Assembly (NCBI GenBank): GCA_036735545.1
Contig: DAINOD010000007.1
Span: 2,972 to 66,971 of the forward strand
DNA from: Rubrimonas sp.
GTDB lineage: Bacteria; Pseudomonadota; Alphaproteobacteria; Rhodobacterales; Rhodobacteraceae
Reading direction: 5' to 3'
Length of the DNA: 64,000 bases
The notes under the pieces are model-generated. The model was given only the letters and a program-made list of their open reading frames with translations, ran no database searches and was not told where the DNA came from. A program made the position numbers and the translations under genes. Shown in pieces: positions 35,125 to 58,384 of this stretch; within the stretch, counting starts at the first letter, position 1, and every line of letters starts with the position of its first letter.

Positions 35125-35924
35125 CACCACTGCGCGTCGGGCTGGCGGGACTGGGCGCCGTCGGCAAGGTCGTCGCGGAGCGCCTGATCGATGGGGTTCC
35201 CGGACTGGCGCTGGCGGCGCTCGGCGTTCGCGACGAAGGCCGAGCCCGCGCGGCGCTCCCCCGCTTCGACGGACCCGTCGTCTCGCTGGAGGAACTCGCG
35301 GCGCTGAGCGACGTCGTGGTCGAAGGCCTTCCGCCGCCTGCTTTCCTCAGCGTCGCCGTCCCGGCGCTGGAGCAGGGTCGCATCTTCGTGCCCCTCAGCG
35401 TCGGGCAACTGCTGGAGCACTGGGACCTCGTCGGGCTCGCCGAGGCGCGGGGCGCCCGCATCGTCGTCCCCACCGGCGCGCTGCTGGGGCTCGACGCGGT
35501 GCGCGCGGCGGCGGAGGGCGAGATCCGCTCGGTCGCCATGGTGACGCGCAAGCCGCCCGCCGGGTTGGCCGGCGCGCCGTGGATCGTCTCGCAGGGGTTC
35601 GATCTGGACGGTCTGGCCGAGCCTCTCAAGGTCTTCGAGGGGTCTGTCCGCGAGGGGGCGAAGGGTTTTCCGGCGAACCTCAATGTGGCCGCGGCCCTGA
35701 GCCTCGCCGGAATCGGTCCGGACCGCACGACATTGCAGGTCTGGGCCGATCCGGGCGTCACCCGCAACACCCACACCATAACCGTCGATGCCGACAGCGC
35801 CCGCTTCACCATGACGATCGAGAACGTGCCGACCGTCGAGAACCCCCGCACGGGCCGCATAACGGCGCTCAGCACCGTCGCCGCGCTCAGGGGGCTGACG
35901 GCGCCGCTGCGCATCGGAAGCTGA
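35121..35924 (+). CDS. aspartate dehydrogenase-like NAD(P) oxidoreductase (NadX/DUF108 family)
   Basis: Last 267 codons of ORF 33885..35924. The ATG overlaps the tctA TGA (ATGA). Rossmann RVGLAGLGAVGKVV. C-terminal PANLNVAAALSLAG..NTHTITVDADSARFTMTIENVPTVENPRTGRITALS matches my recollection of L-aspartate dehydrogenases. Confidence 0.8.
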   Translation: MTPLRVGLAGLGAVGKVVAERLIDGVPGLALAALGVRDEGRARAALPRFDGPVVSLEELAALSDVVVEGLPPPAFLSVAVPALEQGRIFVPLSVGQLLEHWDLVGLAEARGARIVVPTGALLGLDAVRAAAEGEIRSVAMVTRKPPAGLAGAPWIVSQGFDLDGLAEPLKVFEGSVREGAKGFPANLNVAAALSLAGIGPDRTTLQVWADPGVTRNTHTITVDADSARFTMTIENVPTVENPRTGRITALSTVAALRGLTAPLRIGS

Positions 35925-36344: not shown

Positions 36345-37916
36345 TCACGGCGGCGGCGCCACGCCGGCATAGACCGCGAGGGCGGCGACGAAGGCCGCCA
36401 CCGTCGTGCCGAGTTGGAAGAGGGCGAAGCGCTCGCGCCACCCGGAACCCTCGCCGGCGCTCTGGTTGCCGCGGTTCGACCACTTCTGCTTCGATAAGTG
36501 GAAGATCATGTATATCTTGACCGAAGCGTTTATCAACTGGTTGAAGTAGAGGATGAACGGCCAGCTCAGATCCGGCCTGCGCGCATAACTGTACAGTACG
36601 GTCGACAGAACCAGCCGGGAAGCCACCAGCCAGATCAGCACGTTCCAGAGATAGACGGGGTCGATCAGCGCGGCGAAGATGGCCAGCGCGGGACTGACCA
36701 TCATCGTCCACATCGCGATGCGCTGGTCCACGACGCACCACCAGATGAAGACCGGCATCGCCCTCGGGCCGAGAGCAATCGCCCGGGCGCCGTTTCGAAG
36801 CATGTTGCCGGACCAGCGGCGGAAGTTCTGCACCATGCGCTCCATCCCCGAGCCCTTGATCACTTCGATCGTGTAGACCGTGGCGTCGGGAACGTAGGTC
36901 ATCTTCGCTCCCTTCGAGAGCAGATGATACCAGGTGGACTTGTCGTCGCCGGAAAGGAAGCGGAAGCGGCCCCAGAGCCAGTGGTCCAGATGGTCGGCCT
37001 CGATCGTGCGGATGAACTTCGCATCCACGATGTGGCGGGCGCGGAAGACGCTCATCCGCCCGGTAAGGGTCAGCACGCGGTTCGAGACGGCATGGGACTG
37101 CATCGCGAGCCTGCGCTGGGCGAAACGCATCTCGAGCCAGCCGCCGATCCATCGGGGCCCGTAGCAGAGCACCTCCTCGTCGGTGGTGAGCGCCTCGAGC
37201 GCCGGGTCGGCGCCGAACATCGACAGCGTCTTCTCCAGCACGTCGGCGCCGAACACCGCGTCGCCGTCCATGAAGATGACGAGATCGTCGGGGTCCACGC
37301 CGCTTCGCGCCATGCCGCGCAGGATCAGGCCGATGGCCATGCGCTTGCCCGGCTGATTCTGGCGCACGAAGGTCAACTCGACGAGACCCGGCGGCAAGTC
37401 GGCGCCATGCGTCTCGACGAAGTCGCGGATGATCGTCTCGTCGAAGGCCGAGCCCGTGCCGATCCACAGCGAGGTTGGGATGCGCTCGCGCCGGACCTGC
37501 CGCAGGATCGACCCGATCACCGCGCGCGTGATGGCGGGCTCCTCGAAGTAGGTCGTCATCTGGATGTGGACGCGCCGCGGCCGCCAGCCGGCGGCCCAGA
37601 GCGCCGAGGCCGCGCGGCGCAGGGGCGGCCACTTCGCGCGGCGGAACCACTCCGCCCGCGCGGCGTGGGTGAACCACCAGCCGAAGCGCCAGAGCCCGAG
37701 CGCGCCCAGCGTGAAGGTGAAGGTCTGCAGATCGGGGCTGAGGAAGCGGTTGGGGACGAGCACGGCCAGGCCGAGGATCACGGCCCACAGCGCGCCGTAG
37801 AGCGCCAGAAAGGACGGCGTCCACTTGGCGAGGCCCCGCGGCGCGGGCGCCGCCAGATCGCGCAGGCGCGCGTCGAGGCTTTTGGCGAACGCGTAGTCGC
37901 CCGGGAGCGCCTGCAT
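36345..37916 (-). CDS. alg8: membrane GT2 polysaccharide synthase, Alg8-like (mannuronan synthase catalytic subunit)
   Basis: ORF 36345..37916. N- and C-terminal TM bundles around a GT2 core: IFMDGDAVF (DxD), LTTDEE, FLSGDDKSTWYHLL, and the QxxRW equivalent QNFRRWSGNMLRN. The order and wording of these motifs match my recollection of Pseudomonas Alg8. Confidence 0.75.
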   Translation of the reverse strand: MQALPGDYAFAKSLDARLRDLAAPAPRGLAKWTPSFLALYGALWAVILGLAVLVPNRFLSPDLQTFTFTLGALGLWRFGWWFTHAARAEWFRRAKWPPLRRAASALWAAGWRPRRVHIQMTTYFEEPAITRAVIGSILRQVRRERIPTSLWIGTGSAFDETIIRDFVETHGADLPPGLVELTFVRQNQPGKRMAIGLILRGMARSGVDPDDLVIFMDGDAVFGADVLEKTLSMFGADPALEALTTDEEVLCYGPRWIGGWLEMRFAQRRLAMQSHAVSNRVLTLTGRMSVFRARHIVDAKFIRTIEADHLDHWLWGRFRFLSGDDKSTWYHLLSKGAKMTYVPDATVYTIEVIKGSGMERMVQNFRRWSGNMLRNGARAIALGPRAMPVFIWWCVVDQRIAMWTMMVSPALAIFAALIDPVYLWNVLIWLVASRLVLSTVLYSYARRPDLSWPFILYFNQLINASVKIYMIFHLSKQKWSNRGNQSAGEGSGWRERFALFQLGTTVAAFVAALAVYAGVAPPP

Positions 37917-37917
37917 C

Positions 37918-39327
37918 TCAGCGGCTCCGGCCGAAAAGCGGGCCCAGCAGATCGCGGCGAACCACGATCTCGGCGGGTGCGTTGAAGGGCAGGGCCTCGC
38001 GCGCGGCCCCGGCGGTCATGCCGCTCGCCTCGATGGTGACGATCATCCCGAAAACGTCCGGGGCCGAAGGGTCGGCCCCCGCCTCGACCGCCGCCACGCG
38101 CCCTTCGATCTCCCGCGCCACGCCGCTGCTGCGCAGCAGGATATCGGCCCGCATGCCGATCCGCACCGATCCGGCCAGTCGGTCGTCGAGCCAGCCGCGC
38201 ACCATCCGCGGCGCGTCGGTTTCGAACACGGCGACGGGGTCGCCGGCGCGCACGTATTGCCCCTCGCGCGTCAGCCATTGAACGACGAGGCCGACGGCCG
38301 GCGCCGAGAGATTCATGTACTGTTCGGTCTGGCGCAGTCGCCGCAGATCGGCGACGGCGCGGTCCCGGTCGTTCTCGACGGAGCGCAACGTCGCCTCGAG
38401 CGCCGCGCGCCGATCATTGTGGTCGCCCTGCCGGAGGGGAACGCCCGCATCGAAGCGGCGCAGCGCCGAGGCCGAGTAGAGCCTCTCAACCATGGCGCGC
38501 GCCTCCTCGCGCACCGCGTCATGCGCGGCCAGCCGCGCGCGCGCCTCCGCCGCCATCGTCTCGAGCGCGGCATGCCGCGCGTCGACGTCCGCCAGCGCCT
38601 CCTCGCCCTCCGGCTTCTCGACGCGGGCCAGCACGGTCCCTTCCTGCGTGACGCTGTCCTGCGTCGCGAGCTGGCGGAGATAGCCTTCGCGCGGCGCGGT
38701 CAGCACGAGGCGCTCGGCCGTGACGCGGGCGTGCGACAGCGTCATGCCCTCGATGCGGCTCCAGGCGAGCGAGCCGACGAACCAGACGACCGCCACGAAC
38801 AGGCCCAGATGCCACGCGATGTTCAGCGCCGCGCGAAAGAAGCGGGGACGGGCGCGGGCGACGCCCGCGGCCTTCTCCGCCTCGGTCTCGCCCATCGGGA
38901 TCAGATCGACGGGGGTGTCGAGCGCGGTGATCACCTCCTCGGTTGCGGCCATCCTGCCGACCATGAGGTTGCGGTAGAACAGGCCGAGCGCCTCCCGCTG
39001 GCGGCCGGTCAGACCCTCGAAGGGCCGGAAGCCGCCCTCGCCCACGGGGCCGAACGCCACCGGGAAGCCGACTTCGACGCCCTGGAAGGGGATGAGCAGC
39101 CGCGCCCCGCCCAGATCGCGCCTGGACGGCGCGTCGTCGTAGACGCCCGAGAGCGACCAGCGTCGCACCATGAGCCGCCGGCCGTCCGGCAGGCCGATCA
39201 CGAGCGGCGCGACGACGGTGTGCTCGGTTTCCGGCGCCGGGCGCTCATGCCTGATCTGCACGCCGGAGGGCGCCGCCTCGAAGGTCCCAGGCGCATCGCG
39301 GTCGGCGGCCTGCAAGGGCGTGGTCAT
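37918..39327 (-). CDS. alg44: Alg44-like co-polymerase: PilZ-like N-domain, one TM, HlyD/membrane-fusion-like periplasmic domain
   Basis: ORF 37918..39354 (TTG). ATG at 39327 has a GGGAG 7 nt upstream. N-domain segments RRWSLSGV, LLIPFQGVEVGFPVAF and FEGLTGRQREALGLFYRNLMVGRMA parallel Alg44 DLSAGGF, LLFQVDSISFSLEVEF and FQNLKPREVAALRYLITSYLAGEV. TM AWHLGLFVAVVWFVGSLAW, then a coiled-coil/barrel MFP-like region. The stop is 1 nt from the alg8-like start. Confidence 0.65.
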   Translation of the reverse strand: MTTPLQAADRDAPGTFEAAPSGVQIRHERPAPETEHTVVAPLVIGLPDGRRLMVRRWSLSGVYDDAPSRRDLGGARLLIPFQGVEVGFPVAFGPVGEGGFRPFEGLTGRQREALGLFYRNLMVGRMAATEEVITALDTPVDLIPMGETEAEKAAGVARARPRFFRAALNIAWHLGLFVAVVWFVGSLAWSRIEGMTLSHARVTAERLVLTAPREGYLRQLATQDSVTQEGTVLARVEKPEGEEALADVDARHAALETMAAEARARLAAHDAVREEARAMVERLYSASALRRFDAGVPLRQGDHNDRRAALEATLRSVENDRDRAVADLRRLRQTEQYMNLSAPAVGLVVQWLTREGQYVRAGDPVAVFETDAPRMVRGWLDDRLAGSVRIGMRADILLRSSGVAREIEGRVAAVEAGADPSAPDVFGMIVTIEASGMTAGAAREALPFNAPAEIVVRRDLLGPLFGRSR

Positions 39328-39961
39328 GGCGGCGCTCCCTTCCGTCTCGGTCAAACCGCAGATAACCCAAGCGGGCCGCCTGCGCCGCGCCGATCAGGGA
39401 TGGGCGCAGGGCGCGCCCGGCTCGATCCCCTGTCCGAAAGGATAGGTCCCGCCGCGACCGACCGCGCGGGCCAAGGCTTCAGGCCGGCCGCCCAGCGCTC
39501 ATCGCGGAGACCTCGGCGACGCGCCCGTCCAGCGGCGGCGTCCCGATCTTCCGATGCGTCGACAGCCTGCCGTGCTGCGATGTGGACGGCGTCGAACCGT
39601 TCGGCGTCGGGCTGAGCCACATGATCGCCGTCGCCATCGGCGACACGATCCCTGGCGCCGAACGTGGCCGCGCGCAGGACGAAAGAACGGCGGTGGCGCG
39701 GCTGAACGCTCGCAGCGCGGCGCAGGCGTAGAAGACCGCCGCGCGTCTGGGCGGCTGGTCGCTGACGGTGATCGGCGACGTCGAGGCACTGGGGCGGCGC
39801 GGCCCCCGAGCAGTCCCGCTCGCGCCGTTCGCCGACGATGCAGCCTGACGCGCAGCCGACCGCGACCCTACCCGTTCGGATAGGGCGACCCTCCCGTCGC
39901 GCGCTGGCCTTCGCGACCGTGGGGCGTAAGGTGGCGATCGTCCGGGTGGAAGGATCGAACG

Positions 39962-41140
39962 GTGCGCATCGCGACAGCCAGATCCGTCGCCCGGTCGGCG
40001 ACGCAGGCGGCCGAGGAACTCGCGGCGGAGCTGGGCGTCGACACCCTTGGCGCCCCGGACTTCCTCGCGGTCCACTTCTCGGCGGGCATCGACGCCGAGG
40101 CGTTGCGTGGGGCCGCCTTGGCGCGGTTGGGGACGGCGACGCTCCACGGCGGGTCGTCCTGCCTTGGGGTCATGTCCCAAGCGGGCGTGGACATCGAGGG
40201 CGGCGTCGGCGCGCTCGCGATCTGGGATCAGGCTGGCGACTATGGCGTTGCGTCGGCCACGCTCGGCGCGGACGCGCGCGAGGCCGCGCGCACGGCCGCC
40301 ACGGCGGCGCTCACGGCGGCGGGGCGGCCCGGCGAAATGCCCGAGCTGGTCTGGCTGTCGGTCGCCCCGGGGCGGGAGGAGGAGGCGCTGGCGGGTCTGC
40401 GGGACGCTCTCGGGCCCGACGCGCTGATCGTCGGGGGCAGTTCCGCCGACGATCATGTGAGCGGCGGCTGGCGGCAGTTCGGGCCTGAGGCCTCACACGC
40501 CGACGGCGTCGTGGTCTCGACGCTGTTTCCCTCGGCCCCTGTGGTGTCGATCTATCAGAGCGGCTACGCGCCGACCGGCGAAAGCGGCGTCGTCACCCGT
40601 GTCGACGGGCGACGCCTCTACGAGATCGACGGCCGGTCGGCCGCCGAGATCTATGGCCGCTGGACCGGCGGCGCGGTCCCCGCGGCGACCGACGCGCCCG
40701 TCTCGATCCTCGCCGCCGCCACACTCTGGCCGCTCGGGCGGGTGACGCGCCATGTGGCGGGCGTGCCGTTCCACCTGCTGGCGCATCCGGCGGCCGCGCA
40801 CCCCGACGGATCGCTGGACCTGTTCGCCGACGTCGCGGTCGGCGATCGGCTCTGGCAGATGCAGGGATCGGGCGACAGCCTCGTGGCGCGCGCGGGCCGG
40901 ATCGCGCGACAGGCGCGCGAGCAGGCGGGCGGGACCGTGCGCGGCGCGCTGATCGTCTATTGCGGCGGCTGCATGCTCGCGGTGCGCGAGCGGATGCACG
41001 AGGTCCGCGCCGGCGTCGAGGCCGCGCTGGGTGGCGCGCCCTGGCTCGGGGTGTTCACTTTCGGGGAACAGGGCGCGCCGCTGGGCGGGCGGTCCGAACA
41101 CGGCAACCTGATGATCTCCTGCACCGCTTTCGGAGGTTGA
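39962..41140 (+). CDS. stand-alone FIST_N + FIST_C protein (same architecture as the NO sensor NosP)
   Basis: ORF 39962..41140 (GTG after GGAAGGA). FIST-like PDFLAVHFSAGIDAEALRGAALARLGTATLHGGSSCLGVM. FIST_C-like GALIVYCGGCMLAV..LGVFTFGEQG..HGNLMISCTAF. No output domain. Confidence 0.7.
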   Translation: MRIATARSVARSATQAAEELAAELGVDTLGAPDFLAVHFSAGIDAEALRGAALARLGTATLHGGSSCLGVMSQAGVDIEGGVGALAIWDQAGDYGVASATLGADAREAARTAATAALTAAGRPGEMPELVWLSVAPGREEEALAGLRDALGPDALIVGGSSADDHVSGGWRQFGPEASHADGVVVSTLFPSAPVVSIYQSGYAPTGESGVVTRVDGRRLYEIDGRSAAEIYGRWTGGAVPAATDAPVSILAAATLWPLGRVTRHVAGVPFHLLAHPAAAHPDGSLDLFADVAVGDRLWQMQGSGDSLVARAGRIARQAREQAGGTVRGALIVYCGGCMLAVRERMHEVRAGVEAALGGAPWLGVFTFGEQGAPLGGRSEHGNLMISCTAFGG

Positions 41141-41143
41141 GGC

Positions 41144-41695
41144 ATGAAGGGCGTCATCTTCGTCGAACTCCTCGCCATGGCGGAGGACGCTTTCGGCGAG
41201 GCGGTGGTCGACCGCGTGATCGAGGCTGCGCGGCTGCCGTCAGGCGCCGCCTACACGAGGACCGGCAATTACCCCTGCGAGGAACTGCTGACGCTTGTCC
41301 GCGCCTTCGCGGCGTTGGACGGGAGCTCCGAGGACGCTCTCCAGCGCTCTTTCGGTCATTGGACCATGCGGAGCTTCGAGCGGCACTATCCCCGGTTCTT
41401 CTCCGGTCACGCCGGCAGCCTCGACATGCTGTCGGGGATCGAGGACGATATCCACGCCGAAGTGCGCAAGCTTTATCCCGACGCGGACCTTCCCAGCTTC
41501 GAGACGGTGCGACATGGCCCCGACGCGCTGGACATGACCTACAGGTCGCCCCGCCCGCTCGCCGCGTTCTGCCACGGGCTGATCGAGGCGTGCGTCGAGC
41601 ATTTCGGCGAGCGCGCGCGCATCGAGCGCCGCGACCCCGGCGTCGAGAACCGGACGGAGGCGCGCTTCAGCATCCGGACCGCCCCTCCGGAATGA
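41144..41695 (+). CDS. hnoX: H-NOX (heme nitric oxide/oxygen binding) protein
   Basis: ORF 41144..41695. MKGVIFVELLAMAEDAFGEAVVDRVI N-terminus. Candidate proximal His104 (IEDDIHAEVRKLYP, nt 41453-41455). Y133-R-S135-P-R137 = YxSxR heme-propionate motif (nt 41540-41554). 183 aa, starts 3 nt after the FIST gene. Confidence 0.8.
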   Translation: MKGVIFVELLAMAEDAFGEAVVDRVIEAARLPSGAAYTRTGNYPCEELLTLVRAFAALDGSSEDALQRSFGHWTMRSFERHYPRFFSGHAGSLDMLSGIEDDIHAEVRKLYPDADLPSFETVRHGPDALDMTYRSPRPLAAFCHGLIEACVEHFGERARIERRDPGVENRTEARFSIRTAPPE

Positions 41696-44600
41696 GCGAG
41701 CGCGACCCGGCGGCTCCGGTCTCCCGGGCGCGCTACGAGCGCGAGCGGCGCGCGCGCGCCGAAGCGGAGGCCCTGCTCGAGACCAAGAGCCGCGAACTCT
41801 TCGAGGCGAGCCGCCGCCTGGTGCTGGAGAGCGAGGCCGTGCGCGCCGCGCTGGCCGAGACCCACGCCCTGCGCGCGCGCGAGGCCGAGGCGCTTGAGGA
41901 GCAGTCGATCTTGTCCGGCGCCCTGGCCGCGCTGTCGGGGCGCGACGGCGCGGCCGAGGCCATGCAGGCGCTGCTCGAGACCCTGCGCTCGGGTTTCTCG
42001 GCCTCCCTGGCCTGCTACGTGCAGGCGGCGGGACCGACGCTGCGCATCGCGGCCAGCGCAGGCGCCGGCGGCGCCGGGACCGACCTGCCCGTTGCTGCCG
42101 GGCTGATCGACCGGCCGCGCCGCATCGCGGGGCTCGCGGCTCTCGCCGATGGCCGCCCCCTGCCGGGGCGCATCGCCGACTGCGCCGCCGTTCTCGTGGC
42201 GCCGCTCAGGCTGCCCGAGGAGGCGGCGGGCGCGCTGCTGCTGGGCGCGACCGAGGCGGGTGGTTTCTCGGCCGCCAGACTACGCCTGCTTGACCGCGTG
42301 GCGGCGGTGGCGACGCCTGCGCTGACAGCGCTCCGAGCCGCGCGGCGCAACGCGCTGCTGGTCTCCCTTATCGAGGGGCGGCCGATAGCGGGCGAAGGCG
42401 GCGTGCTCGACACCCCCCTGGAAGCCGTGCACCGGGCCTTCGCCAGGCTGACCGACATGCAGGGCGAGGTCGTGGGGGTCCTCGACGCGCTGCTCGGCGC
42501 TCCGCTGGCCGAGGCGGACGCGGCGATCGAGGCGGCGCTGGCCCGGATGGGAGCGCTGACGCGCAGCGACCGCGTCCATGTCGTCAGATTCAGCGACGAC
42601 GGAGACGCCGGCGGGACCAGCCACGCATGGCGCCGGCGCGGGGCAAGGGCCTTGCGCGAGGGGCCCGAGGGTATCCCCGCCGCGACAATGGCCGCCTGGC
42701 GGGAGGCCTTCGGCGACGGGCGCGACGTGCTCATCCCCGACGTGACGATCATGCCTGACGATGCTCCGGAGAAGGCGATCCTGCTCGGCCAGGGCGTCCG
42801 CTCCCTGTTCGGCACGCCCATGATCGATCACGGCGCGCTGCGCGGGATCGTCTGCTACGAAACGGCGACGGCGCAGCGCAGCCTGCTGCCCGGCGAGGTC
42901 TATCTGATCCGCTCCGTGGCGAGGGTCATCGCGACGCTGCTGGCGAGGCGCGACGCCGAGGCGGCGCTTCACGCCGCCAATGCCGAGACCGAGGCCGAGC
43001 GCGCCCGGCTGCAGTCCGTTCTGGCGGCGATGCCCGACCTGCTGATCGAACTCGATCGCGACGGCCAGACTGTAGGCTGGCGCTCTGGCGAAGGCGTCCG
43101 GCCTGCCGCCTTCGCCGCCGGAGCAGAGGGCCGCACGCCGGAGCAGGCGCTGCCCGAGCCTCTCGCGGCGCACGCGCGCGCCATGACCGTCGAGATCGAC
43201 GCCGGCCGCCGGCCTCAGCCGCGCGTGTTCGCCCATCCTCCAGACGGCGACGCGGCGCGCTGGTGGCAGGTCTCGGCCTCGGCGCTGGCGGAGCGCGGCT
43301 ATCTGCTGGTGCTGCGCGACGTCACCGAGGCGCGCGCGCAAACGGCCCTCATCGAGCGCCTCTCCGAGATCGCGCGGCGCACGACCAACCTCGTGGTGGT
43401 CACCGACGCCGAACGGCGCATCGAGTGGGTGAACGCGGCCTTCGAGCGCGCCACGGGCTGGCGGCTCGATGAGGTGCGGGGCGACGGCGCGGGCCGCCTG
43501 CTGCAATGCGAGGCCACCGATCCGGCGACCGTGGCGCGGCTTCGCGCGGCGCTCGACGCGGGCGAGGCGATACAGGCCGAGATCCTCAACCGCGCGCGCG
43601 ACGGCCGACACTACTGGGTTGCGCTCGACATCCAGCCGCTGCGCGACGCCGCGGGCGCCCTGCAGGGTTTCATGGCCGTGGAGATCGACGTCACCGAACG
43701 CCGCGCCCAGGCCGACGCGCTGCGCGCCGCCGCCGACGATGCAGCGCGGGCGCGCGCGACGCTGGAGGCTGCGGTGGGAGCGCTGCAGGACGGCTTCGCG
43801 CTCTACGACGCCGAGGACAGGCTCGTGATCTGCAACGAGCGCTACCGTCAGGTCTATCCCCGCTCCGCCGAAGCCATCCGGCCGGGCGAAACCTTCGAGG
43901 CGATCCTGCGCGCGGGCCTCGCGCTGGGGGAGTACGCCGACGCCGTGGGGCGCGAGGAGGATTGGCTCGCCGAGCGCCTCGCCCGCCACCGCGCACCCTA
44001 CAACGAGGTGGAGCAGCGGCTCTCGGATGGCCGGTGGCTGCGCGTCTTCGAGAAGGCGACCCCCGACGGCGGGCGGGTCGGCCTGCGGGTCGACATCACG
44101 GCGCTGAAGCGCGCCGAGCAGCGGGCGCTCGCCGACCGCTCCGCCGCCATGGAGGCGAGCCAGGACGGCATCGCCATCACCGACGCCGAGGGGCGGTTCG
44201 TCTACATGAACCGCGCACACCTCGCCCTGTTCGGGTTTGACGACGAGGCGCAGGTGATCGGCCGCCCGTGGAGCATCCTCTACGCGCCCGACGCGGCGCG
44301 GTGGATGGAGGCGAACGCGCTTCCCGCGCTTCGGCGCACGGGGCGCTGGTCGGGCGAGATCATGGGCCGCGCCCGAGACGGCGCGCCGGTGGACCAGGAC
44401 GTGTCGCTCACGCTGAAGGACGACGGCGGAATCCTGTGCATCGTGCGCGACATGCTTTTCCGTCGCCGCGAGGCGGAGGAGCGCGAGCGGCTGCGCGAGG
44501 AACTCCGGCTCTCGCAGCGCCGCGAGATCATCGGGCGGACGGCGGCGGGGCTCGCGCACGATTTCAACAACCTGCTTGCGGCGATTTCGGGCGGCGCCGC

Positions 44601-45648
44601 GCTCATCGAGGCGGGGGCCGAGGCGGGCGGGGTCGCCGCCGCCGGGGCCGCGCGCATCCAGAAGGCGGCCGATCAGGCGGCGGGCCTCGTGCGGCGGCTG
44701 CTGTCGCTCGGCGCGCGGCCCCAGCCGAGCGCGCCGCTCGACATGCGAAAGACGCTGGTCGAGGCGGGTCAACTTGTGCGCGCCGGCCTGCGGGCTCCCG
44801 CGCGCCTGCGCGTCGAGACGCCCGATGCGCCGATGATGGCGCTGGCGGACGCCACCGATGTCCTTCAGGTGGCGCTGAACCTCGCCATCAACGCCCGCGA
44901 CGCGCTTGGCGGGGCCGCGGGCGAGATCGTCCTCGCGCTGAGCGAGGCGCGGAGCGACGATCTGGCGGGCCCTTTCGTCGCGGGCGCGGTGGACCCGAGG
45001 CGGCCCTATCTGCTGCTGAGCGTTCGCGACGATGGGCCCGGCATGACCCCCGAGCTCGCGGCTCAGGTTTTCAGGCCCTATTTCACCACCAAGGGCGACG
45101 AAGGCTCGGGACTGGGCCTCGCCGTCGTCGCGTCGGTCGTCACGGCCCATGGCGGGGCGGTCCGGCTCGATACCGCGCCGGGGCGCGGCGCGCGCTTCGA
45201 CGTGTTGTGGCCGGCGGCGGACGGCGCAGCGCCGACCGCCGCCGGAGCGGTCGACGGGCTGAGCGGGCGGCTCGACGGCCGGGCCGTCCTCGTCGTCGAC
45301 GACGATCACGACGTGCTCGCGACGCATGTCGCGATCCTGGAGGCGGCCGGGGCGGAGGTCGCGCCGTCCACCGATCCGGCGGATGCGCTGGAGGCGCTTG
45401 TCGAGGATCCGGACGCCTGGGACCTGCTGGTGACCGACTTCGACATGCCCGGCATGACCGGCGCCGAACTCACCGGGCGCGCACGCGCGATAGTTCCCCG
45501 GCTGCCCGTGGTGCTTGTGACCGCGCTGGCGGGCGCCGGGTGGCGCGAGGGAGCGACCTTCGACGCCGTGCTGCCCAAGCCCGTGGGGCGCGAGGCGCTT
45601 GTCATCGCCGTCGAGACGGCGATACTCGCGCGGCGAGACAAGGTTTGA
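41692..45648 (+). CDS. cytoplasmic hybrid sensor histidine kinase (coiled coil, 2 GAF-like, ~4 PAS, HisKA, HATPase_c, receiver)
   Basis: Part of ORF 40960..45648. ATG at 41692 overlaps the H-NOX TGA (ATGA). No TM segment. PAS-like blocks (e.g. NLVVVTDAERRIEWVNAAFERATGW; DGFALYDAEDRLVICNERYRQVYP; DGIAITDAEGRFVYMNRAHLALFGF). H-box AAGLAHDFNNLLAAI, G-box GDEGSGLGLAVV. Receiver VLVVDDDHDVL..LLVTDFDMPGMTG..LPKPV. Confidence 0.85.
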   Translation: MSERDPAAPVSRARYERERRARAEAEALLETKSRELFEASRRLVLESEAVRAALAETHALRAREAEALEEQSILSGALAALSGRDGAAEAMQALLETLRSGFSASLACYVQAAGPTLRIAASAGAGGAGTDLPVAAGLIDRPRRIAGLAALADGRPLPGRIADCAAVLVAPLRLPEEAAGALLLGATEAGGFSAARLRLLDRVAAVATPALTALRAARRNALLVSLIEGRPIAGEGGVLDTPLEAVHRAFARLTDMQGEVVGVLDALLGAPLAEADAAIEAALARMGALTRSDRVHVVRFSDDGDAGGTSHAWRRRGARALREGPEGIPAATMAAWREAFGDGRDVLIPDVTIMPDDAPEKAILLGQGVRSLFGTPMIDHGALRGIVCYETATAQRSLLPGEVYLIRSVARVIATLLARRDAEAALHAANAETEAERARLQSVLAAMPDLLIELDRDGQTVGWRSGEGVRPAAFAAGAEGRTPEQALPEPLAAHARAMTVEIDAGRRPQPRVFAHPPDGDAARWWQVSASALAERGYLLVLRDVTEARAQTALIERLSEIARRTTNLVVVTDAERRIEWVNAAFERATGWRLDEVRGDGAGRLLQCEATDPATVARLRAALDAGEAIQAEILNRARDGRHYWVALDIQPLRDAAGALQGFMAVEIDVTERRAQADALRAAADDAARARATLEAAVGALQDGFALYDAEDRLVICNERYRQVYPRSAEAIRPGETFEAILRAGLALGEYADAVGREEDWLAERLARHRAPYNEVEQRLSDGRWLRVFEKATPDGGRVGLRVDITALKRAEQRALADRSAAMEASQDGIAITDAEGRFVYMNRAHLALFGFDDEAQVIGRPWSILYAPDAARWMEANALPALRRTGRWSGEIMGRARDGAPVDQDVSLTLKDDGGILCIVRDMLFRRREAEERERLREELRLSQRREIIGRTAAGLAHDFNNLLAAISGGAALIEAGAEAGGVAAAGAARIQKAADQAAGLVRRLLSLGARPQPSAPLDMRKTLVEAGQLVRAGLRAPARLRVETPDAPMMALADATDVLQVALNLAINARDALGGAAGEIVLALSEARSDDLAGPFVAGAVDPRRPYLLLSVRDDGPGMTPELAAQVFRPYFTTKGDEGSGLGLAVVASVVTAHGGAVRLDTAPGRGARFDVLWPAADGAAPTAAGAVDGLSGRLDGRAVLVVDDDHDVLATHVAILEAAGAEVAPSTDPADALEALVEDPDAWDLLVTDFDMPGMTGAELTGRARAIVPRLPVVLVTALAGAGWREGATFDAVLPKPVGREALVIAVETAILARRDKV

Positions 45649-45653
45649 CAGAA

Positions 45654-46271
45654 ATGCGCGTGCTGATCGCCGATGACCACGACCTGTTGCGCGACACCCT
45701 CGAACTGTGGTTCCGGCAAGAGAAGATCGACGTCGTCTCGGCGCGCGACCTCGACGCCGCGATGGCGGCCGTGGCGGCGGCCACCGAACCCTTCGACCTG
45801 ATCTTGCTCGACTACACCATGCCCGGCATGAACGGGCTCGACGGGCTTGGCCGCGCGCTGCGGGAGGGCGGCGGGACGCGCGTCGCCATCATGTCGGGGA
45901 GCGCCCCGCGCGAGGTGGCCGAGCGCGCGCTCGAGTCCGGCGCCTCCGGCTTCCTGCCCAAGACGCTGCCCGCCCGCACGCTGGTCAACGCCGTCCGCTT
46001 CATGGCGATGGGCGAGCAGTACGCGCCGGTCGACTTCATGACCGCGCCGCCCGAGGCGACGCCGGTCAACCCGCTCGCGGAGCGGCTGACCGCGCGCGAG
46101 TTGGACGTGCTGGAGAAGCTCTGCGAAGGGCTCGCCAACAAGGAGATCGCCCGCGCCCTCGGCATCCAGGAGCCCACGGTCAAGCTCCACATGAAGACGC
46201 TCTATCGCAAGATCGGCGCGAGCAACCGCACCCAGGCCGCGATGATGGCGAAACAGGCGGGCTTGTTCTAG
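45654..46271 (+). CDS. NarL/FixJ (LuxR-type HTH) response regulator
   Basis: Last 205 codons of ORF 44268..46271. ATG 5 nt after the kinase stop. Receiver MRVLIADDHDLLRD..LILLDYTMPGMNG..LPKTL. HTH LTARELDVLEKLCEGLANKEIARALGIQEPTVKLHMKTLYRKIG. Confidence 0.9.
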   Translation: MRVLIADDHDLLRDTLELWFRQEKIDVVSARDLDAAMAAVAAATEPFDLILLDYTMPGMNGLDGLGRALREGGGTRVAIMSGSAPREVAERALESGASGFLPKTLPARTLVNAVRFMAMGEQYAPVDFMTAPPEATPVNPLAERLTARELDVLEKLCEGLANKEIARALGIQEPTVKLHMKTLYRKIGASNRTQAAMMAKQAGLF

Positions 46272-46708
46272 CGGCCTTCAGGCGCAGTCCGGCGGTCTGT
46301 CAGGGTCGGGGCGAAGATCGTCATGCGTGAATGGAAGACCCTGAGCCGCCTTCTCGCCTTTGACGCCGCCCCCTACCTGCGGTTGTTCCGCGAGCAGGTC
46401 GAGGTGGCGACGGGACGGATTCGCCGCTCTGACGCCGTCGGAGGTCGATGCGGCGCTGGACGGCGGCAGGTTCGGCGTCATCCGCCATGTCGCCGCCTGG
46501 CGCCTCGCCCGCCGGCGTCCTGCGTTTACGGCGGCGTGACCGGCTAGGCCGCCTATCCTTTCGGGCAGCCCGCCGCCCCGAACGACGTCCCAACCGACGC
46601 CAGCGCAGGGGGCGACGCCCCGGCCGCGCCCCGCGCCCATCCCGGGGCGCGCGGGCGCCGCGCCGTCGCTGCTGGCACACGGTCTCCAACGCAACAGGAG
46701 ATCCCGCC

Positions 46709-48091
46709 ATGCTGAACCAAAGCGTCGCCCTCTTCGGCTCGACCGCCCCTGCCGCCCGCCCCGTCGTCTCCGTGGTCGGGCTCGGCTATGTGGGCGCCGT
46801 CTCCACCGCCTGCCTCGCAGGCCTAGGCCACCGCGTCGTCGGCGTGGACGTCGACCCGGTCAAGGTTCAGGCGGTCGGCGAAGGGCGCTCGCCGATCCAC
46901 GAGGCCGATCTCGGTCGTCTGCTCTCCGAGGGCGTCGCCGCGGGTCGCATCTCCGCCACCCACGACCTGCCCGCCGCTGTGGTCGCCTCGGACGTGACCT
47001 TCGTCTCGGTCGGCACGCCCACCGCCGCCGACGGCGGTTGCGACCACCGCTACATCGTCGCCGCCGCGCGCGGCATCGGCGAGGGCCTCAAGCGCAAGGG
47101 CGCCTTCCATGTCGTCGTGATGCGCTGCTCGATCCCGCCGGGCTCGACCATGGGCGTCATGGTCCCCGAAATCGAGGCCGCCTCGGGCCTGACCGCCGGC
47201 CGGGACTTCGGCGTGTGCTTCAACCCCGAGTTCCTGCGCGAAGGGGTGGCGGTCGCCGACTTCCACGCGCCGCCCAAGACGGTGATCGGCGTGACCGACC
47301 CCGCCACCGCCGCGCTGATGGCCCGTCTCTACGCCGACGTCGACGCGAACCCCATCGTCACCTCGATCGAGGTCGCCGAGATGGTGAAGTATGTCGACAA
47401 CGTCTGGCACGCCGCCAAGGTCACCTTCGCCAACGAGGTCGGCCGGCTGTGCAAGCCGCTCGACGTGGACAGCCACGAGGTGATGAACATCTTCGTGCGC
47501 GACACGAAGCTGAATCTGTCGCCCTACTATCTCCGGCCCGGCTTCGCCTATGGCGGCTCGTGCCTTCCCAAGGAAGTGCGCGCGGTCGCTCACCTGGCGG
47601 AAAGGCTCGGCGTCGACCTGCCGCTGATCGGCGCGCTCGACCGCTCGAACGCCAGCCAGATCGCCGAGGCGGCGCGGATGGTGAAGGCGACAGGGGCCCG
47701 CCGCGTCGCGGTGCTGGGCCTCGCCTTCAAGCCGGGCACCGACGATCTGCGCGAGAGCCCGATCCTCGAAGTCATGGCCGATCTTCTCGACCACGGCGTC
47801 GAGATCCTCGCCCACGACCCCGCGATCACCGCCGAGACGCGCATCGAGGCGCAGCTCGGCTACGTCGCCCACGCCTCGAAGGGCCTCGGGCGCCTCGCGA
47901 GCGGCCTTCGCGCCATGCTGGCGGACAGCGCGGCCGAGGCCGTCGACGCCGCCGACGCGGTGATCGTCACCCACGCGCACCCCGCCTACCGCGCGCTCGC
48001 CGCCGTCGCCGGCAAGCCGGTGATCGACGTGGCGCGACTGTGGATGTCCCGCGCCGACCAGCCCGCCCACCTCCAGGGCATCGGCTGGTGA
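46709..48091 (+). CDS. algD: GDP-mannose 6-dehydrogenase (AlgD-like)
   Basis: Part of ORF 46448..48091. ATG after AGGAG. [75 protein letters not shown]; C-terminal ..LQGIGW. These parallel Pseudomonas AlgD (..[24 protein letters not shown].., ..[24 protein letters not shown].., ..GICW) as I recall it. Confidence 0.8.
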   Translation: [460 protein letters not shown]

Positions 48092-48125
48092 GCCAATCCC
48101 CTCCCCGTTCTTCCGGAGACGAGCC

Positions 48126-48539
48126 ATGACCCTGCACGCACCCCTGCTCGCTGCGCCCTCCGCCGTCCCCGCCGATGCGCCGCTGCACGAGAACCGCCCC
48201 TGGGGCGCATTCTGGAGCCTCGACCGCGGCGCCGCGCATCAGGTGAAGCGCATCCGCGTCAATCCCAAGGGCCGGCTGTCGCTGCAGTATCACCACCACC
48301 GCGCCGAGCGCTGGGTGGTGATCGAGGGCACCGCCACGATCACCGTCGACGACGCCGTGATGAAGGTGAAGCCCGGCGGCGTGGTGATGATCCCGAAGGG
48401 CGCGGTTCACCGGCTGGAGAACCTGACCAGATCCCCCGTCGAGATCATCGAGGTCCAGATGGGCGACTACCTCGGCGAGGACGACATCGTGCGCCTCGAC
48501 GACGCCTACGGACGACCCGGGCGCGTGGCGCGCGGCTGA
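48126..48539 (+). CDS. stand-alone type II phosphomannose isomerase cupin domain (AlgA/ManC C-terminal-like)
   Basis: ORF 48126..48539. ENRPWGAFWSL..VKRIRVNPKGRLSLQYHHHRAERWVVIEGTA..IPKGAVHRLEN..EIIEVQMGDYLGEDDIVRLDDAYGR is the PMI-type cupin. No nucleotidyltransferase domain. Confidence 0.7.
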   Translation: MTLHAPLLAAPSAVPADAPLHENRPWGAFWSLDRGAAHQVKRIRVNPKGRLSLQYHHHRAERWVVIEGTATITVDDAVMKVKPGGVVMIPKGAVHRLENLTRSPVEIIEVQMGDYLGEDDIVRLDDAYGRPGRVARG

Positions 48540-48594
48540 CGCCGGCCGGGGCGGGCGCCCTGCGACGCCGGCATGACCTCCCAACAGCATCGAG

Positions 48595-50703
48595 GTGAAT
48601 CACATGACGACTGCGATCACGCCCGTCCTCGGGACGGCCGGGAACGACGTGCTGCACGGCGCCGCCGGCGGCGACATCATTTCCGGGCGCCAGGGCGACG
48701 ACATCCTTCACGGCCATGGCGGCGATGACCTGATCCATGGCGGTTCGGGCAACGACACGATCCATGGCGGCGCCGGCGACGACATCCTCTACGGCGGCGG
48801 CGGGCCGACGCTGCTGCGGATGGATCGACTGACCATCGCCGAGGATTACCTGGGCCGCGTGACCTTCATCGATGAAGGCGCAGGGTTCCGCAACACACTC
48901 GGAATGTACCGGATTGGCGAGGATGGTACGATTTCGGACGTGCAGATCCTGTTTCTGAACGCCTCGAAGGTCGGATCGGGCGGCGACCTGATCCCGGGTC
49001 AATCCCATGTCGATGTTCCGTTGCAGGCGGGCGACCAGATCGGGTTCTTCATCCTGTCGAACGGCTTCGGGCAAACCACAGGCCGGCTTCCGACCGCGCC
49101 GGGAACGTTCGAGTTCAGAAACGCCGCAGGGCAGCCCGGCAACATCGACAATCAGGGTAACCTGACGCTCTGGCATGTCGCGCCCGATGGCGCGCGGACC
49201 GCCATGCGCACGCAATACGGCACCGACACCTACCATGCGGCCGCGCGCCCCGAAAACAACTTCGCGCTGAACCCCGACAATTTCGGCCACACGGTTGGTC
49301 GTCTGGAAACCCGGCAGGGCGCCGTGCTGCTGGGCTTCGAGGATTTGCGCAACGGGGGAGACAAGGACTTCGACGACGTCATGTTCCGCTTCGATGTCGG
49401 CCAGTCGAATGCACGCGTCCTCGACCCCAACATCGTCTACGGCGCGGATGCCGAGGTGGCGCCCTCGTTCTTCTACGACGCGGACGGCATCCGTCGCGAC
49501 ATGCAGGGCGAGGTCCTCGATCAGGAGAATGACGTCATCCATGGCGGCGACGGCGACGACACGATCTATGGCGGCGTCGGGCATGACCGCCTCCATGGCG
49601 GCGATGGCGACGACGTCATCTACGGCAACTCCGGCGACGACATTCTCTGGGGCGACCGGGGCGACGACACGCTCTATGGCGGCAAGGGGGATGACATCCT
49701 CCATGGCGGCGCAGGCAACGACGAGTTGCACGGCGACAGCGGAAACGACACGCTCCATGGCGGCGACGGCGACGACGTTCTTTACGGTGGATCGGGCGAT
49801 GATGTCCTGCATGGAGATGCCGGCAACGACACGCTCTATGGCGGCGCCGGCAACGACACGCTCTACGGCGGCTCTGGCGACGACGTGCTGGACGGCGGCA
49901 GCGGCAACGACTGGCTTTATGGCGGCGCGGGCAACGACACCCTGCACGGCGGTGATGGCGAGGACGTCCTGTTCGGCGGCACGGGCAGCGACAGGCTGTA
50001 CGGCGGGGCGGGTGACGACATCCTGCATGGCGGGGACGGCAACGACTATCTCGATGGCGGATCCGGCGACGACGAGTTGTATGGCGGGATCGGCAACGAC
50101 GAACTGCATGGCGGGGCAGGCGATGACCTGCTCGACGGCGGCGAGGGCGACGACAAGCTCCATGGCGGGGCCGGGAATGACGTTCTGCATGGCGGGGCCG
50201 GCAACGATCAGCTTTGGGGCGGCACCGGCAACGACATCCTCCATGGAGGTGACGGCGACGACCGCCTTTATGGCGGGGAAGGCGACGACATCCTTCATGG
50301 CGGCGACGGCGACGACCGGCTCGAAGGCGGCAAGGGCGACGACGTCCTCCATGGCGGCGCGGGCGACGACCGGCTGTTCGGCGGCGAGGGTGACGACATC
50401 CTGATCGGCGGCGCCGGCGCCAACGTCCTGACCGGCGGCGCCGGCGCGGATTGCTTCGTGTTCGACGTGGCGGTGTCGGCGACCGACCGGATCACCGATT
50501 TCGAGTGCGGCGTCGACCGGATCGAGATCTTCGGCCTGCTCGGCGAGGGTTTCTCCCCCGTTACATTCCGCGAGGCCAGCTTCGGGATCGACGACGCCGG
50601 GACAGTCCGCATCGCCGAGGGCGGATGGTCGGTCGAGATCACGAACCGCTTCGGAGTCGGCGACTTCGCGGCGCAGGTCTGGGACAGCGTGCTCTTCGTG
50701 TGA
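48595..50703 (+). CDS. RTX (hemolysin-type Ca-binding) repeat protein with central DUF4114-like domain
   Basis: ORF 48595..50703, 702 aa. GGxGxDxUx nonapeptides at aa ~14-70 and aa ~312-620. Central [45 protein letters not shown] matches DUF4114. About 80-aa non-repeat C-terminus, as in T1SS substrates. No signal peptide. Confidence 0.85.
48634..48804 (+). repeat. N-terminal block of ~6 RTX nonapeptide repeats
   Basis: [53 protein letters not shown] read from the ORF translation. Confidence 0.85.
49528..50454 (+). repeat. C-terminal block of ~34 consecutive RTX nonapeptide repeats (27-nt periodic DNA)
   Basis: aa 312-620 ([24 protein letters not shown] ... [19 protein letters not shown]). 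The DNA is correspondingly periodic (ggcggcgMcggcgacgac variants). Confidence 0.9.
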
Positions 50704-50708
50704 CAGTT

Positions 50709-50731
50709 CGGCCGCCCGACATGGGCGGCCG
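50709..50731 (+). terminator. GC-rich hairpin 6 nt after the RTX stop codon
   Basis: CGGCCGCCC-gacat-GGGCGGCCG: perfect 9-bp stem, 5-nt loop, read from the sequence. No U-tract follows, so intrinsic-terminator function is uncertain. Confidence 0.45.
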
Positions 50732-56770: not shown

Positions 56771-56771
56771 G

Positions 56772-57245
56772 TCAAAGCCCCGGAAGATCGATGACGAAGA
56801 CGCGGGTGAAGACGTACTGACCGCCGAAGCCGACCACCGCCGCGACCGCCGCCACCCACGGCAGCCGGGTGCGCCGGAAGCCGACGAGAAGACCGATGGT
56901 CAGCACGAGATAGATCGTGGTCATGACGCTGAACGTCGTCACGCGCCACGTCAGCGCGGCAAGGTAGAGCCCGGTCAGGCCGAACACGGCGAGCGCGTCC
57001 AGCCACCGCTCGTCACCGTCCTGCGCACCCCGCTCGCCCCGAATCAGCCGCATCGCCGCGCTGGCGGCGGCGAGCGCTGCCAGCGCGATGATCCCCCAGG
57101 CCGTAGCCCGCGGAACCGGCCCCGACCCCAGGGGCTCGAAGAAGCCCGGCCGGATGCTCGACGCCTCGACAAGCACCGCGCCGGCGAGGATCGCGAACGC
57201 GAGGCACACGAGAAGCTCGTGAAGCGGGTCTATCCTCTTGTCCAC
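56772..57245 (-). CDS. tctB: TTT small membrane protein TctB (second system)
   Basis: ORF 56772..57245. 157 aa, four hydrophobic segments. The stop is 1 nt from the tctA start. Confidence 0.75.
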   Translation of the reverse strand: MDKRIDPLHELLVCLAFAILAGAVLVEASSIRPGFFEPLGSGPVPRATAWGIIALAALAAASAAMRLIRGERGAQDGDERWLDALAVFGLTGLYLAALTWRVTTFSVMTTIYLVLTIGLLVGFRRTRLPWVAAVAAVVGFGGQYVFTRVFVIDLPGL

Positions 57246-57267
57246 GGCGCGGGTCCGGCCGGCGTGT

Positions 57268-58248: not shown

Positions 58249-58384
58249 GTTTTCCTCCCCGGACTTCTTTGTGTTTTTGGCGGTGCGATTCGAAGATGGC
58301 CGACGGACGGCGTGACGTACGACCAATCGCAGGTTGACCTTCGGCGTCCGCTGGCGCAACCCTTTCCGAAGCTGGAGGAGTTCG

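Follow-up and report, generated by a model that had tools for sequence, protein, structure and literature searches.

A minimal Alg8/Alg44-type exopolysaccharide locus of Rubrimonas sp. with a predicted dedicated regulator, an operator-like palindrome and candidate nitric oxide sensors

To our knowledge, work on alginate-type synthesis has been confined almost entirely to Pseudomonas and Azotobacter. In these organisms it is controlled by AlgU/AlgR/AmrZ and by cyclic di-guanosine monophosphate (c-di-GMP), whose binding to Alg44 is obligatory for synthesis and needs the arginines of the RxxxR motif of Alg44 as well as the Asp of its second motif; in Azotobacter, RTX proteins (AlgE) accompany the system. 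Here we describe a locus of the same general class from the alphaproteobacterium Rubrimonas sp. (assembly GCA_036735545.1, contig DAINOD010000007.1), found in a 64,000-nucleotide stretch (contig positions 2,972 to 66,971) that was analyzed as a whole and is called the window below. The locus occupies positions 36,345 to 50,731 of the window and brings together an alg8-like and an alg44-like gene, a sensor operon coding for a FIST protein, an H-NOX protein, a hybrid histidine kinase and a response regulator, and a third unit coding for an AlgD-like dehydrogenase, a cupin and an RTX protein (Table 1). We propose, with a probability of roughly 0.6, that it is best explained as a minimal Alg8/Alg44-type synthase-dependent exopolysaccharide locus under its own regulator and operator.

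Set against the alginate system of P. aeruginosa and A. vinelandii (algD-8-44-K-E-G-X-L-I-J-F-A), the locus has homologous Alg8, AlgD and Alg44 proteins, with alg44 adjoining alg8, and an RTX protein like the Azotobacter system; further, its relatives carry AlgA-, AlgC-, AlgI-, AlgX- and AlgK-like genes. In contrast, the window is without AlgK/E/G/L/I/J/F/X, the gene order differs, the RxxxR motif of Alg44 is lost, the RTX proteins of the locus family come with DUF4114 or DUF6923 domains, and control is predicted to lie with a REC+GerE regulator of the locus and its operator.

On the sensory side, H-NOX and NosP act mainly via c-di-GMP enzymes or quorum-sensing relays, and FIST genes are frequent neighbors of hnoX in one H-NOX sequence group (PMC8738867). 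The H-NOX/HnoK system of Shewanella oneidensis (HnoB, HnoD, HnoC) likewise has H-NOX beside a kinase and a DNA-binding output, HnoC, a phosphorylation-controlled transcription factor; however, HnoC acts back on the hno genes alone, and the main biofilm output goes via c-di-GMP enzymes (PMC8738867), whereas in the window, where a palindrome also precedes the sensor operon, the sole encoded output is a DNA-binding regulator with predicted polysaccharide targets, and a FIST gene is part of the operon. In the NosP systems (NosP-NahK of P. aeruginosa; NosP-NosK-NosR of Burkholderia pseudomallei, which ends in an HD-GYP regulator, PMC12570481; NosP of Legionella), as here, a FIST protein of single-domain type has its gene directly upstream of that of the kinase, and as with NahK the kinase is a hybrid and a biofilm link is to be expected; their described outputs are HD-GYP or GGDEF-EAL regulators or Hpt relays in contrast to the GerE-type output of the window, whose FIST protein and kinase also fall far below the NCBI NosP and NahK models. 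The H-NOX-HnoK-diguanylate cyclase pathway of Silicibacter sp. TrichCH4B (PMC8738867) has in common with our locus a marine Rhodobacterales host, an H-NOX-kinase pair and a biofilm-related output, but it ends in an active diguanylate cyclase, whereas our locus has no c-di-GMP enzyme nearby and its synthase partner is without the c-di-GMP motif. An earlier note on this DNA, made from the sequence without database searches, had known of no characterized system with this wiring. Given the described FIST/hnoX neighborhoods and the H-NOX relay to HnoC (PMC8738867) this holds only for the combination, which appears to be new: an Alg8/Alg44 synthase with a motif-less PilZ domain, a dedicated regulator with an operator, and, in this lineage, two haem-type sensors in one operon that would feed this regulator. 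Our literature searches turned up no study of the roseobacter alg8/alg44 locus or of its regulator and operator; yet the novelty is tempered, since each part is known by itself, loci of this family are common and the control by nitric oxide (NO) is inferred.

The synthase core, precursor genes and RTX protein

The family-2 glycosyltransferase (GT2) is, by homology, a predicted Alg8-family enzyme and putative mannuronan synthase, with polymerizing activity likewise predicted. It is 36% identical to P. aeruginosa Alg8 in an alignment of 458 aa (263 bits, E 3e-86), in which, read by eye, the catalytic motifs correspond: MDGDAV to IDGDTV (DxD) and FRRWSGN to MYRWYGN (QxxRW-type). The reference Alg8 came from a contig of metagenomic P. 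aeruginosa (L087) that was located with a P. aeruginosa AlgD sequence rebuilt from a PDB alignment, encodes a 100% identical AlgD and has the canonical order algD, alg8, alg44 (PilZ+HlyD_3) and algK (Sel1), with algX (ALGX+CBM_26) farther downstream. A HMMER search of 1.84 billion representative proteins delineated a narrow family of 501 clusters at E<=1e-3, a size that argues against a generic cellulose, NodC or hyaluronan synthase type. Close homologs (67-85% identity) are abundant in Rhodobacterales and, where the JGI gives them a name, are called 'glycosyltransferase Alg8' or 'mannuronan synthase'; a PDB sequence search with the GT2 gave no match, and NCBIfam has no specific model for it.

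Some further observations concern the wider GT2 family. A search for the Pseudomonas Alg8 among the GT2 matches returned, in 20 representative look-ups, unnamed or KO-labelled metagenome proteins only, and the 'Alg8'-named match P0334 proved to have an unrelated context beside acyl-AMP ligases. In a plasmid collection we found only 35-36% identical GT2 paralogs, on Rhizobium chromids and on roseobacter plasmids (Loktanella, Tateyamaria, Jannaschia and Salipiger; records H1-H14), and therefore the Alg8-like family is broader in the Alphaproteobacteria than the locus studied here. P0251, P0254, P0256, P0260 and other Alg8-like members are 870-960 aa long with about 400 C-terminal residues that have no Pfam match; these may be Alg8-Alg44-type fusions.

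The protein encoded next to the GT2 is, on the evidence of family profiles and a structural model, a full-length remote homolog of Alg44 that lacks the canonical c-di-GMP-binding arginines. Its relationship is barely visible at the level of single sequences: pairwise BLAST against Alg44 is marginal, a PDB sequence search gives no match, NCBIfam has no specific model, and Pfam PilZ matches neither it nor its 140 homologs, whereas it does match P. aeruginosa Alg44. An alignment of 38 family members resolves a highly conserved cytoplasmic domain of 160 residues, a hydrophobic segment that we presume, from reading by eye, to be a transmembrane helix, and an HlyD-like part (Pfam HlyD_3 at residues 349-444). 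The AlphaFold model of residues 1-170 has six strands and a helix, with a predicted local distance difference test score (pLDDT) of about 90 at residues 40-120, and Foldseek against the PDB places the PilZ domains of Alg44 (4rt0, 4xrn) and BcsA as best matches (E about 3e-4, probability 1.0). Likewise, when the family profile is compared with P. aeruginosa Alg44 by hhalign, the match extends through both domains in 312 columns (95% probability, E 4e-8). In these alignments, which in the flexible N-terminal PilZ loop are of modest confidence (pLDDT 59-72), R17, R21 and D44 of Alg44 fall on E33, T37 and R56; the RxxxR motif is thus replaced, with the R17 column acidic in nearly all of the 38 members, and of the second PilZ motif, D/NxSxxG, only the nearly invariant Ser and Gly are kept. 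The PilZ domain lacks the c-di-GMP-binding arginines, and control of this synthase has apparently moved to transcription. The window itself has no GGDEF, EAL or HD-GYP gene, as the earlier note had already remarked: GGDEF, EAL, HD-GYP, PilZ and Hpt are without a Pfam match among all sizeable open reading frames (ORFs) of the 64 kb, and tblastn with self-made consensus probes for GGDEF, EAL, HD-GYP and PilZ returned nothing below E=0.1.

The dehydrogenase is predicted to be an AlgD-like GDP-mannose 6-dehydrogenase. Its best PDB match is P. aeruginosa AlgD (1mfz) at 373 bits, as against 275 for the best UDP-glucose dehydrogenase; it is 42% identical to AlgD over 450 aa, full length, and the catalytic GGSCLPK with its Cys is conserved and aligned with that of AlgD. 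The cupin that follows holds the place of the full AlgA-like ManC found in most relatives. Taken together, these results bear out the enzyme labels of the earlier note, which had named, as outcomes that would speak against them, grouping of the GT2 with cellulose, hyaluronan or other synthases and of the dehydrogenase with UDP-glucose dehydrogenases; both side instead with the alginate enzymes, and the HlyD protein also takes the Alg44-like place that it had been given.

The RTX protein is predicted to be secreted and carries a DUF4114 beta-sandwich domain. Most related loci keep an RTX gene in the same place, its product usually having DUF6923 at the N-terminus; the window protein is of the rarer DUF4114 type also seen in Pontivivens. 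The N-terminal DUF4114 domain has only nine homologs; its beta-sandwich model is of moderate confidence and gives no significant fold match, and neither DUF4114 nor DUF6923 domains match any epimerase family or solved structure. Distant DUF4114 homologs (P0247-P0249), in an alignment read by eye, end in PEP-CTERM-like C-terminal sorting signals, which would tie DUF4114 to other exopolysaccharide-associated secreted proteins.

The regulator, the operator-like palindrome and the sensor proteins

The intergenic regions of the locus contain an 18-bp palindrome of 7-4-7 geometry, CCTATCC-N4-GGATAGG. Inverted repeats of this length and geometry are typical targets of dimeric LuxR/GerE-type helix-turn-helix proteins. 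An exact 13-mer, CCTATCCTTTCGG, is common to both long intergenic regions in the same orientation relative to the biosynthetic gene, such that the first 13 bases of site 3 are those of site 1 read towards the alg44-like gene, and the 64 kb contain only three sites with up to three mismatches, all of them in the three promoter regions. In 1.56 Mb of sequence from relatives (83 non-duplicate sequences) the palindrome occurs without mismatch 9 times and with at most one mismatch 47 times, where shuffled sequences lead one to expect 0.27, and only the 4-bp spacer is enriched. Outside the window, 45 sites have at most one mismatch. Of these, 41 precede the genes for the Alg44-like protein, ManC or cupin, dehydrogenase or FIST: 18 lie just before alg44, 16 between alg8 and manC/cupin, 3 before algD and 4 before FIST. 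The other four, which are unclassified, we judged from their coordinates to be near other promoters of the locus. When nine alg44 promoter regions are aligned, the palindrome stands out as a block of identity while the DNA around it has diverged, and in Pontivivens it also precedes the regulator gene itself. At up to two mismatches it has no occurrence in 1.31 Mb of Pseudomonas-type alg loci or in three regulator-less Gemmobacter loci. We assign the palindrome to the regulator since this is the sole conserved DNA-binding protein of the locus, which thus probably binds it. The direct transcriptional route to the polysaccharide that the earlier note had supposed is supported by this conserved element, which precedes the two polysaccharide operons as well as the sensor operon.

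Most alg44 promoter regions have a second conserved element, (C)CATCCC, which follows the palindrome at a distance of about 32-38 bp. In the window it falls at 39380-39400, between palindrome 1 and the alg44-like gene and about 30-35 bp away from the former. Its sequence is similar to that of another half-site (xATCC) or of a promoter element.

The regulator itself has confident REC (79 bits) and GerE (71 bits) matches in Pfam, with the phospho-acceptor Asp (LLDYTMPG) and the Lys of LPKT present, and scores below the cutoffs of all named NCBI equivalogs, such as NarL and ErdR. In the kinase, the H-box (LAHDFNNLL) and the receiver Asp (TDFDMPG) are intact; it reaches 100.7 in the NCBI NahK model, as against a cutoff of 1500. 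Compared with the kinase of a FIST-only locus from Dinoroseobacter (927 aa, three PAS domains), it has about 390 extra N-terminal residues, which contain two GAF domains.

Upstream of the kinase, with its stop codon overlapping the kinase start (ATGA), lies the H-NOX gene. Its product scores 122 bits against a cutoff of 25.5 with Pfam HNOB, and 108 bits against solved H-NOX structures, where it is closest to NO-sensing H-NOX proteins; the proximal His (IHAEV), the Pro and the YxSxR motif (YRSPR) align, and a non-polar residue, Phe, stands at the position of the O2-binding distal Tyr. The FIST protein at the head of the operon is of FIST_N+FIST_C architecture and is encoded in one operon with the kinase, so that 'NosP-like', as the earlier note had it, is apt for the architecture; it is not so for orthology by the NCBI NosP equivalog model.

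The locus family in relatives and the layout of the window

When species-representative genomes were scanned with the GT2, 80 loci were obtained, 58 of them with full context, in which the components were counted by tblastn with the window proteins. The Alg44-like protein was present in 58/58, the dehydrogenase in 55/58, the REC+GerE regulator in 52/58 (a lower bound, two of the six regulator-negative loci being cut at the edge of the fetched range), the cupin in 44/58, FIST in 23/58 (about 40%) and H-NOX in 2/58. As the Alg44-like protein and GT2, the dehydrogenase and the regulator co-occur in 52-58 of the 58 loci, their adjacency is not due to chance. The carriers are mostly Rhodobacterales (Dinoroseobacter, Shimia, Sulfitobacter, Tateyamaria, Cognatiyoonia, Pseudotabrizicola and Gemmobacter), joined by Ahrensia, Roseitalea and Tepidamorphaceae, and the usual order is alg44-alg8-manC-algD-RTX, then FIST-kinase-regulator on the opposite strand. 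Larger versions exist: the locus of Dinoroseobacter sp. S375 adds genes for an ALGX-domain protein, an MBOAT protein (AlgI-like), a PGM/PMM (AlgC-like) and a full GMP+PMI ManC (AlgA-like); across all loci, 20 have MBOAT and ALGX, 50 have the N-domain of ManC and 61 have an RTX protein of the DUF6923 type, and in five loci a secreted Sel1-repeat protein (AlgK-like) is encoded before alg44. The neighborhood is hence conserved in relatives; the earlier note had named a lack of such conservation as an outcome that would speak against its reading. Instead of the one-off bracketing of a gas-sensor relay that the same note had seen, however, the window locus is a minimal, rearranged member of a widespread alphaproteobacterial Alg8/Alg44-type locus family.

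The conserved partner of the biosynthetic genes in this family is the regulator, whose ortholog (43-81% identity) is found in its 52 loci whatever the kinase type, and FIST together with its kinase is one of several interchangeable inputs. Where FIST is present, its orthologs (45-68% identical) adjoin a kinase that is 30-40% identical to that of the window; FIST-less loci keep the regulator with a different PAS kinase that has REC and Hpt domains. Such a PAS-HisKA-HATPase-REC-Hpt kinase is paired with the regulator, without FIST, in Pontivivens ytuae (L004, 16517-19557) and in L075 (5802-8444); in Pontivivens, a protein of 168 aa is encoded before the kinase; it has a weak molybdopterin-oxidoreductase-like match and is possibly another accessory sensor.

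H-NOX was found only in the closest clade of the window (GT2 82-84% identical), in L001, where it was detected by Pfam only, L007 and L008 (Pseudotabrizicola sediminis), some loci of this clade being too short to judge its presence, and the position of the H-NOX module relative to the biosynthetic genes differs between the window, L001 and L008. Given this restriction to one clade and these varying positions, H-NOX would seem to be a recent add-on to an older FIST-kinase-regulator module; the earlier note had treated it as a core part of the wiring, and it turns out to be a lineage-specific insertion known from three related loci only. L001 also has two paralogous REC+GerE regulators, one after the H-NOX-linked kinase (73% identical to that of the window) and one in the usual place after the RTX gene (54%), at 3430-4044 and 14596-15210; the RTX-side regulator is followed by a type I secretion pair (ABC transporter and membrane fusion protein), of which the window has no counterpart near its RTX gene.

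Within the window, the Pfam scan recovered each domain named in the earlier note at its coordinates, and seven of the gene models are exact sequences already in public gene calls. The genes form three tightly packed units, separated by 634 bp and 437 bp: alg44-like and alg8-like with a 1-bp gap; FIST, H-NOX, kinase and regulator with a 3-bp gap, a 4-bp overlap and a 5-bp gap; and dehydrogenase, cupin and RTX with gaps of 34 and 55 bp. The 607 bp given in that note for the divergent region is obtained only with an upstream TTG at 39354 as the alg44-like start; with the deposited ATG at 39327 it is 634 bp. The gene order is identical in the metagenome-assembled genome GCA_964525855.1 of the same organism, and the same sequence is also present in runs SRR3311151/53/56.

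Table 1. Features of the exopolysaccharide locus, in window coordinates.
Feature	Position	Strand	Length	Basis or remark
alg8-like family-2 glycosyltransferase (putative mannuronan synthase)	36345..37916	-	523 aa	Pfam Glyco_tranf_2_3
alg44-like co-polymerase	37918..39327	-	469 aa	HlyD_3, PilZ-fold model, hhalign
Operator-like palindrome 1, CCTGTCCGAAAGGATAGG	39429..39446			102 bp upstream of alg44-like ATG
Operator-like palindrome 2, CCTACCCGTTCGGATAGG	39867..39884			78 bp upstream of FIST start codon
FIST_N+FIST_C protein, NosP-type architecture	39962..41140	+	392 aa	Pfam
H-NOX haem-NO-binding protein	41144..41695	+	183 aa	Pfam HNOB
Hybrid histidine kinase	41692..45648	+	1318 aa	GAF-GAF-PAS-PAS-PAS-HisKA-HATPase-REC
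NarL/FixJ-type response regulator, REC + GerE	45654..46271	+	205 aa	Pfam
Operator-like palindrome 3, CCTATCCTTTCGGGCAGC	46552..46569			140 bp upstream of dehydrogenase ATG
algD-like GDP-mannose 6-dehydrogenase (predicted)	46709..48091	+	460 aa	PDB match, GGSCLPK
Stand-alone mannose-6-phosphate-isomerase-type cupin	48126..48539	+	137 aa	Pfam
RTX calcium-binding protein, DUF4114	48595..50703	+	699 aa from deposited ATG 48604	17 RTX repeat matches

The flanks of the locus are unrelated transport and metabolism genes, and the G+C content of the 64 kb is about 72%. A sigma-70 promoter and terminator scan of the locus produced nothing above shuffles, and an Rfam search of the window no RNA family. 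Downstream of the GT2 gene, a stretch of 1.2 kb that appears gene-free has nothing odd about it, being probably occupied by an aspartate-dehydrogenase-like gene: the ORF at 33885-35924(+) resembles aspartate dehydrogenase over about 35130-35924 (translation read by eye). Elsewhere, a separate envelope- or polysaccharide-looking gene group at 1965-11887 comprises an ABC exporter (1965-4349), a GT1 glycosyltransferase (4930-6573), a 428-aa ORF without a Pfam match (6221-7504), a HAMP kinase with an OmpR-type regulator (7578-9871), a subtilase and an ECF sigma factor. At 55283-61342, two neighboring sulfatase genes beside a TctABC tripartite transporter suggest the use of sulfated organic compounds or polysaccharides, and a small cyclic-nucleotide-binding-domain protein is encoded at 21871-22452, the scanned ORF being without a recognizable DNA-binding domain.

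A proposed mechanism and its alternatives

The gene identities, homologies and synteny described above, together with the loss of the PilZ arginines and the conservation of the operator, were established directly; upon these we build the following plausible mechanism. The AlgD-like dehydrogenase would produce GDP-mannuronate, which the Alg8-like GT2, with the Alg44-like protein, would polymerize at the inner membrane, and the RTX protein would act outside the cell on or with the polyuronate. As no epimerase is encoded, the product is more likely to be plain (poly)mannuronate than true alginate with guluronate. The regulator would bind the palindrome as a dimer and control alg44/alg8, algD-cupin-RTX and its own sensor operon, after presumed phosphorylation by the hybrid PAS kinase encoded just upstream; with no Hpt encoded, an orphan Hpt might be used, as with NahK and HptB, or the transfer might be direct. 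FIST, the putative ancestral partner, and H-NOX, which would have been added along with the extra GAF domains of the kinase, would both modulate the kinase, with NO as the most likely signal. In this scheme we thus infer what binds the operator, in which direction it regulates, which ligand is sensed, how phosphotransfer proceeds and which polymer is made. In its boldest form, which we offer as a tentative reading with odds clearly below even, the Alg44 of a synthase widespread in marine Rhodobacterales and their relatives would be blind to c-di-GMP and the whole system would be the small regulon of a dedicated GerE regulator with an 18-bp operator and exchangeable sensor kinases, of which the version seen here, with two haem sensors (FIST and H-NOX) on one kinase, would be the first direct transcriptional switch from NO to exopolysaccharide.

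Several observations weigh against this scheme. On the side of control, the regulator is matched to the palindrome on the single ground of being the only conserved DNA-binding protein of the locus, site 3 (46552-46569) has three mismatches, and 22 regulator-containing loci have only sites weaker than two mismatches; the kinase is a hybrid and no Hpt was found in the Pfam-scanned 64 kb. As to the signal, FIST fails the NosP equivalog model (23.9 bits, cutoff 450) and has no solved relative in a PDB sequence search, and H-NOX occurs in a handful of relatives, such that NO control is not general to the locus family. As to the synthase, the preserved Ser and Gly of the second PilZ motif allow for non-canonical nucleotide binding, and the alignment of the N-terminal loop is of the modest confidence given above. 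Finally, the cupin is a mere fragment of an AlgA-type enzyme; the AlgK/AlgE export proteins, the epimerase AlgG, the lyase AlgL and the acetylation proteins AlgI/J/F/X are absent among the Pfam-scanned ORFs of the window, and tblastn with the MBOAT, AlgX-like, PGM and ManC N-domain proteins of relatives had no match in it.

These points feed into four alternatives. The relay might control the locus in response to a signal other than NO, i.e., oxygen, redox state, haem availability or some other ligand, with the PAS and GAF domains adding inputs. The failure of FIST to qualify as a NosP ortholog by the curated model, the five additional sensory domains of the kinase, the lack of nir, nor, hmp or any other NO-metabolism gene in the Pfam-scanned window, and the discussion of haem-free and redox signaling by H-NOX in PMC8738867 would all fit such a scenario. 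However, the H-NOX protein has the full haem-binding set with Phe in place of the O2-binding distal Tyr, its nearest relatives of solved structure sense NO, and NO is the signal to which every characterized stand-alone H-NOX/kinase pair cited in PMC8738867 responds; we hence regard a different signal as unlikely, if worth keeping in sight. A similar standing, that of an unlikely alternative, we accord to continued gating of synthesis by c-di-GMP through non-canonical binding to the Alg44-like PilZ fold, with the two-component system adding a transcriptional layer and diguanylate cyclase and phosphodiesterase genes located elsewhere. The PilZ fold is indeed kept at high model confidence, Ser and Gly are nearly invariant, and distant GGDEF/EAL genes would lie beyond the reach of a 64-kb window; yet both RxxxR arginines and the second-motif Asp are replaced family-wide, the R17 position has become acidic, and no family member scores on Pfam PilZ as P. 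aeruginosa Alg44 does.

A further question is whether the 'Alg' labels denote family resemblance only, the synthase making a different polymer. With 36% identity to Alg8, with such labels also given to proteins in unrelated contexts (e.g., P0334), with no epimerase, lyase or AlgE porin in the window and with no dehydrogenase within the fetched range in L001, L007 and L008 of the H-NOX clade, this deserves mention, but the linkage of an AlgD-type GDP-mannose dehydrogenase in 55/58 loci and the accessory genes of the relatives, which are those of the alginate pathway (ManC, PGM/PMM, MBOAT, the ALGX domain and Sel1), make it rather improbable. Least plausible by far is that the sensor operon and the polysaccharide genes are mere neighbors and that an unrelated regulator binds the palindrome. 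True, the H-NOX operon is inserted at different places in the window, L001 and L008; against this, the regulator linkage is kept in 52/58 loci across several bacterial families, the same palindrome precedes biosynthetic and sensor operons, and it is absent from the regulator-less and the Pseudomonas loci.

We accordingly retain the reading of a minimal Alg8/Alg44-type locus under its own regulator and operator. As the predicted output, operator and target operons all lie within 14 kb, the circuit is directly testable, and cultured relatives are at hand, namely Pseudotabrizicola sediminis with FIST and H-NOX, and Dinoroseobacter, Shimia ponticola and Ahrensia marina with FIST only. The RTX protein, nearly always present but with its domain swapped, points to an extracellular step in the formation of a polyuronate matrix. 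If the reading is true, this marine alphaproteobacterial family would represent an alternative way to control alginate-class synthases, and, in the boldest form given above, a switch from NO to polysaccharide might possibly serve NO-mediated dealings with algae or denitrifying communities.

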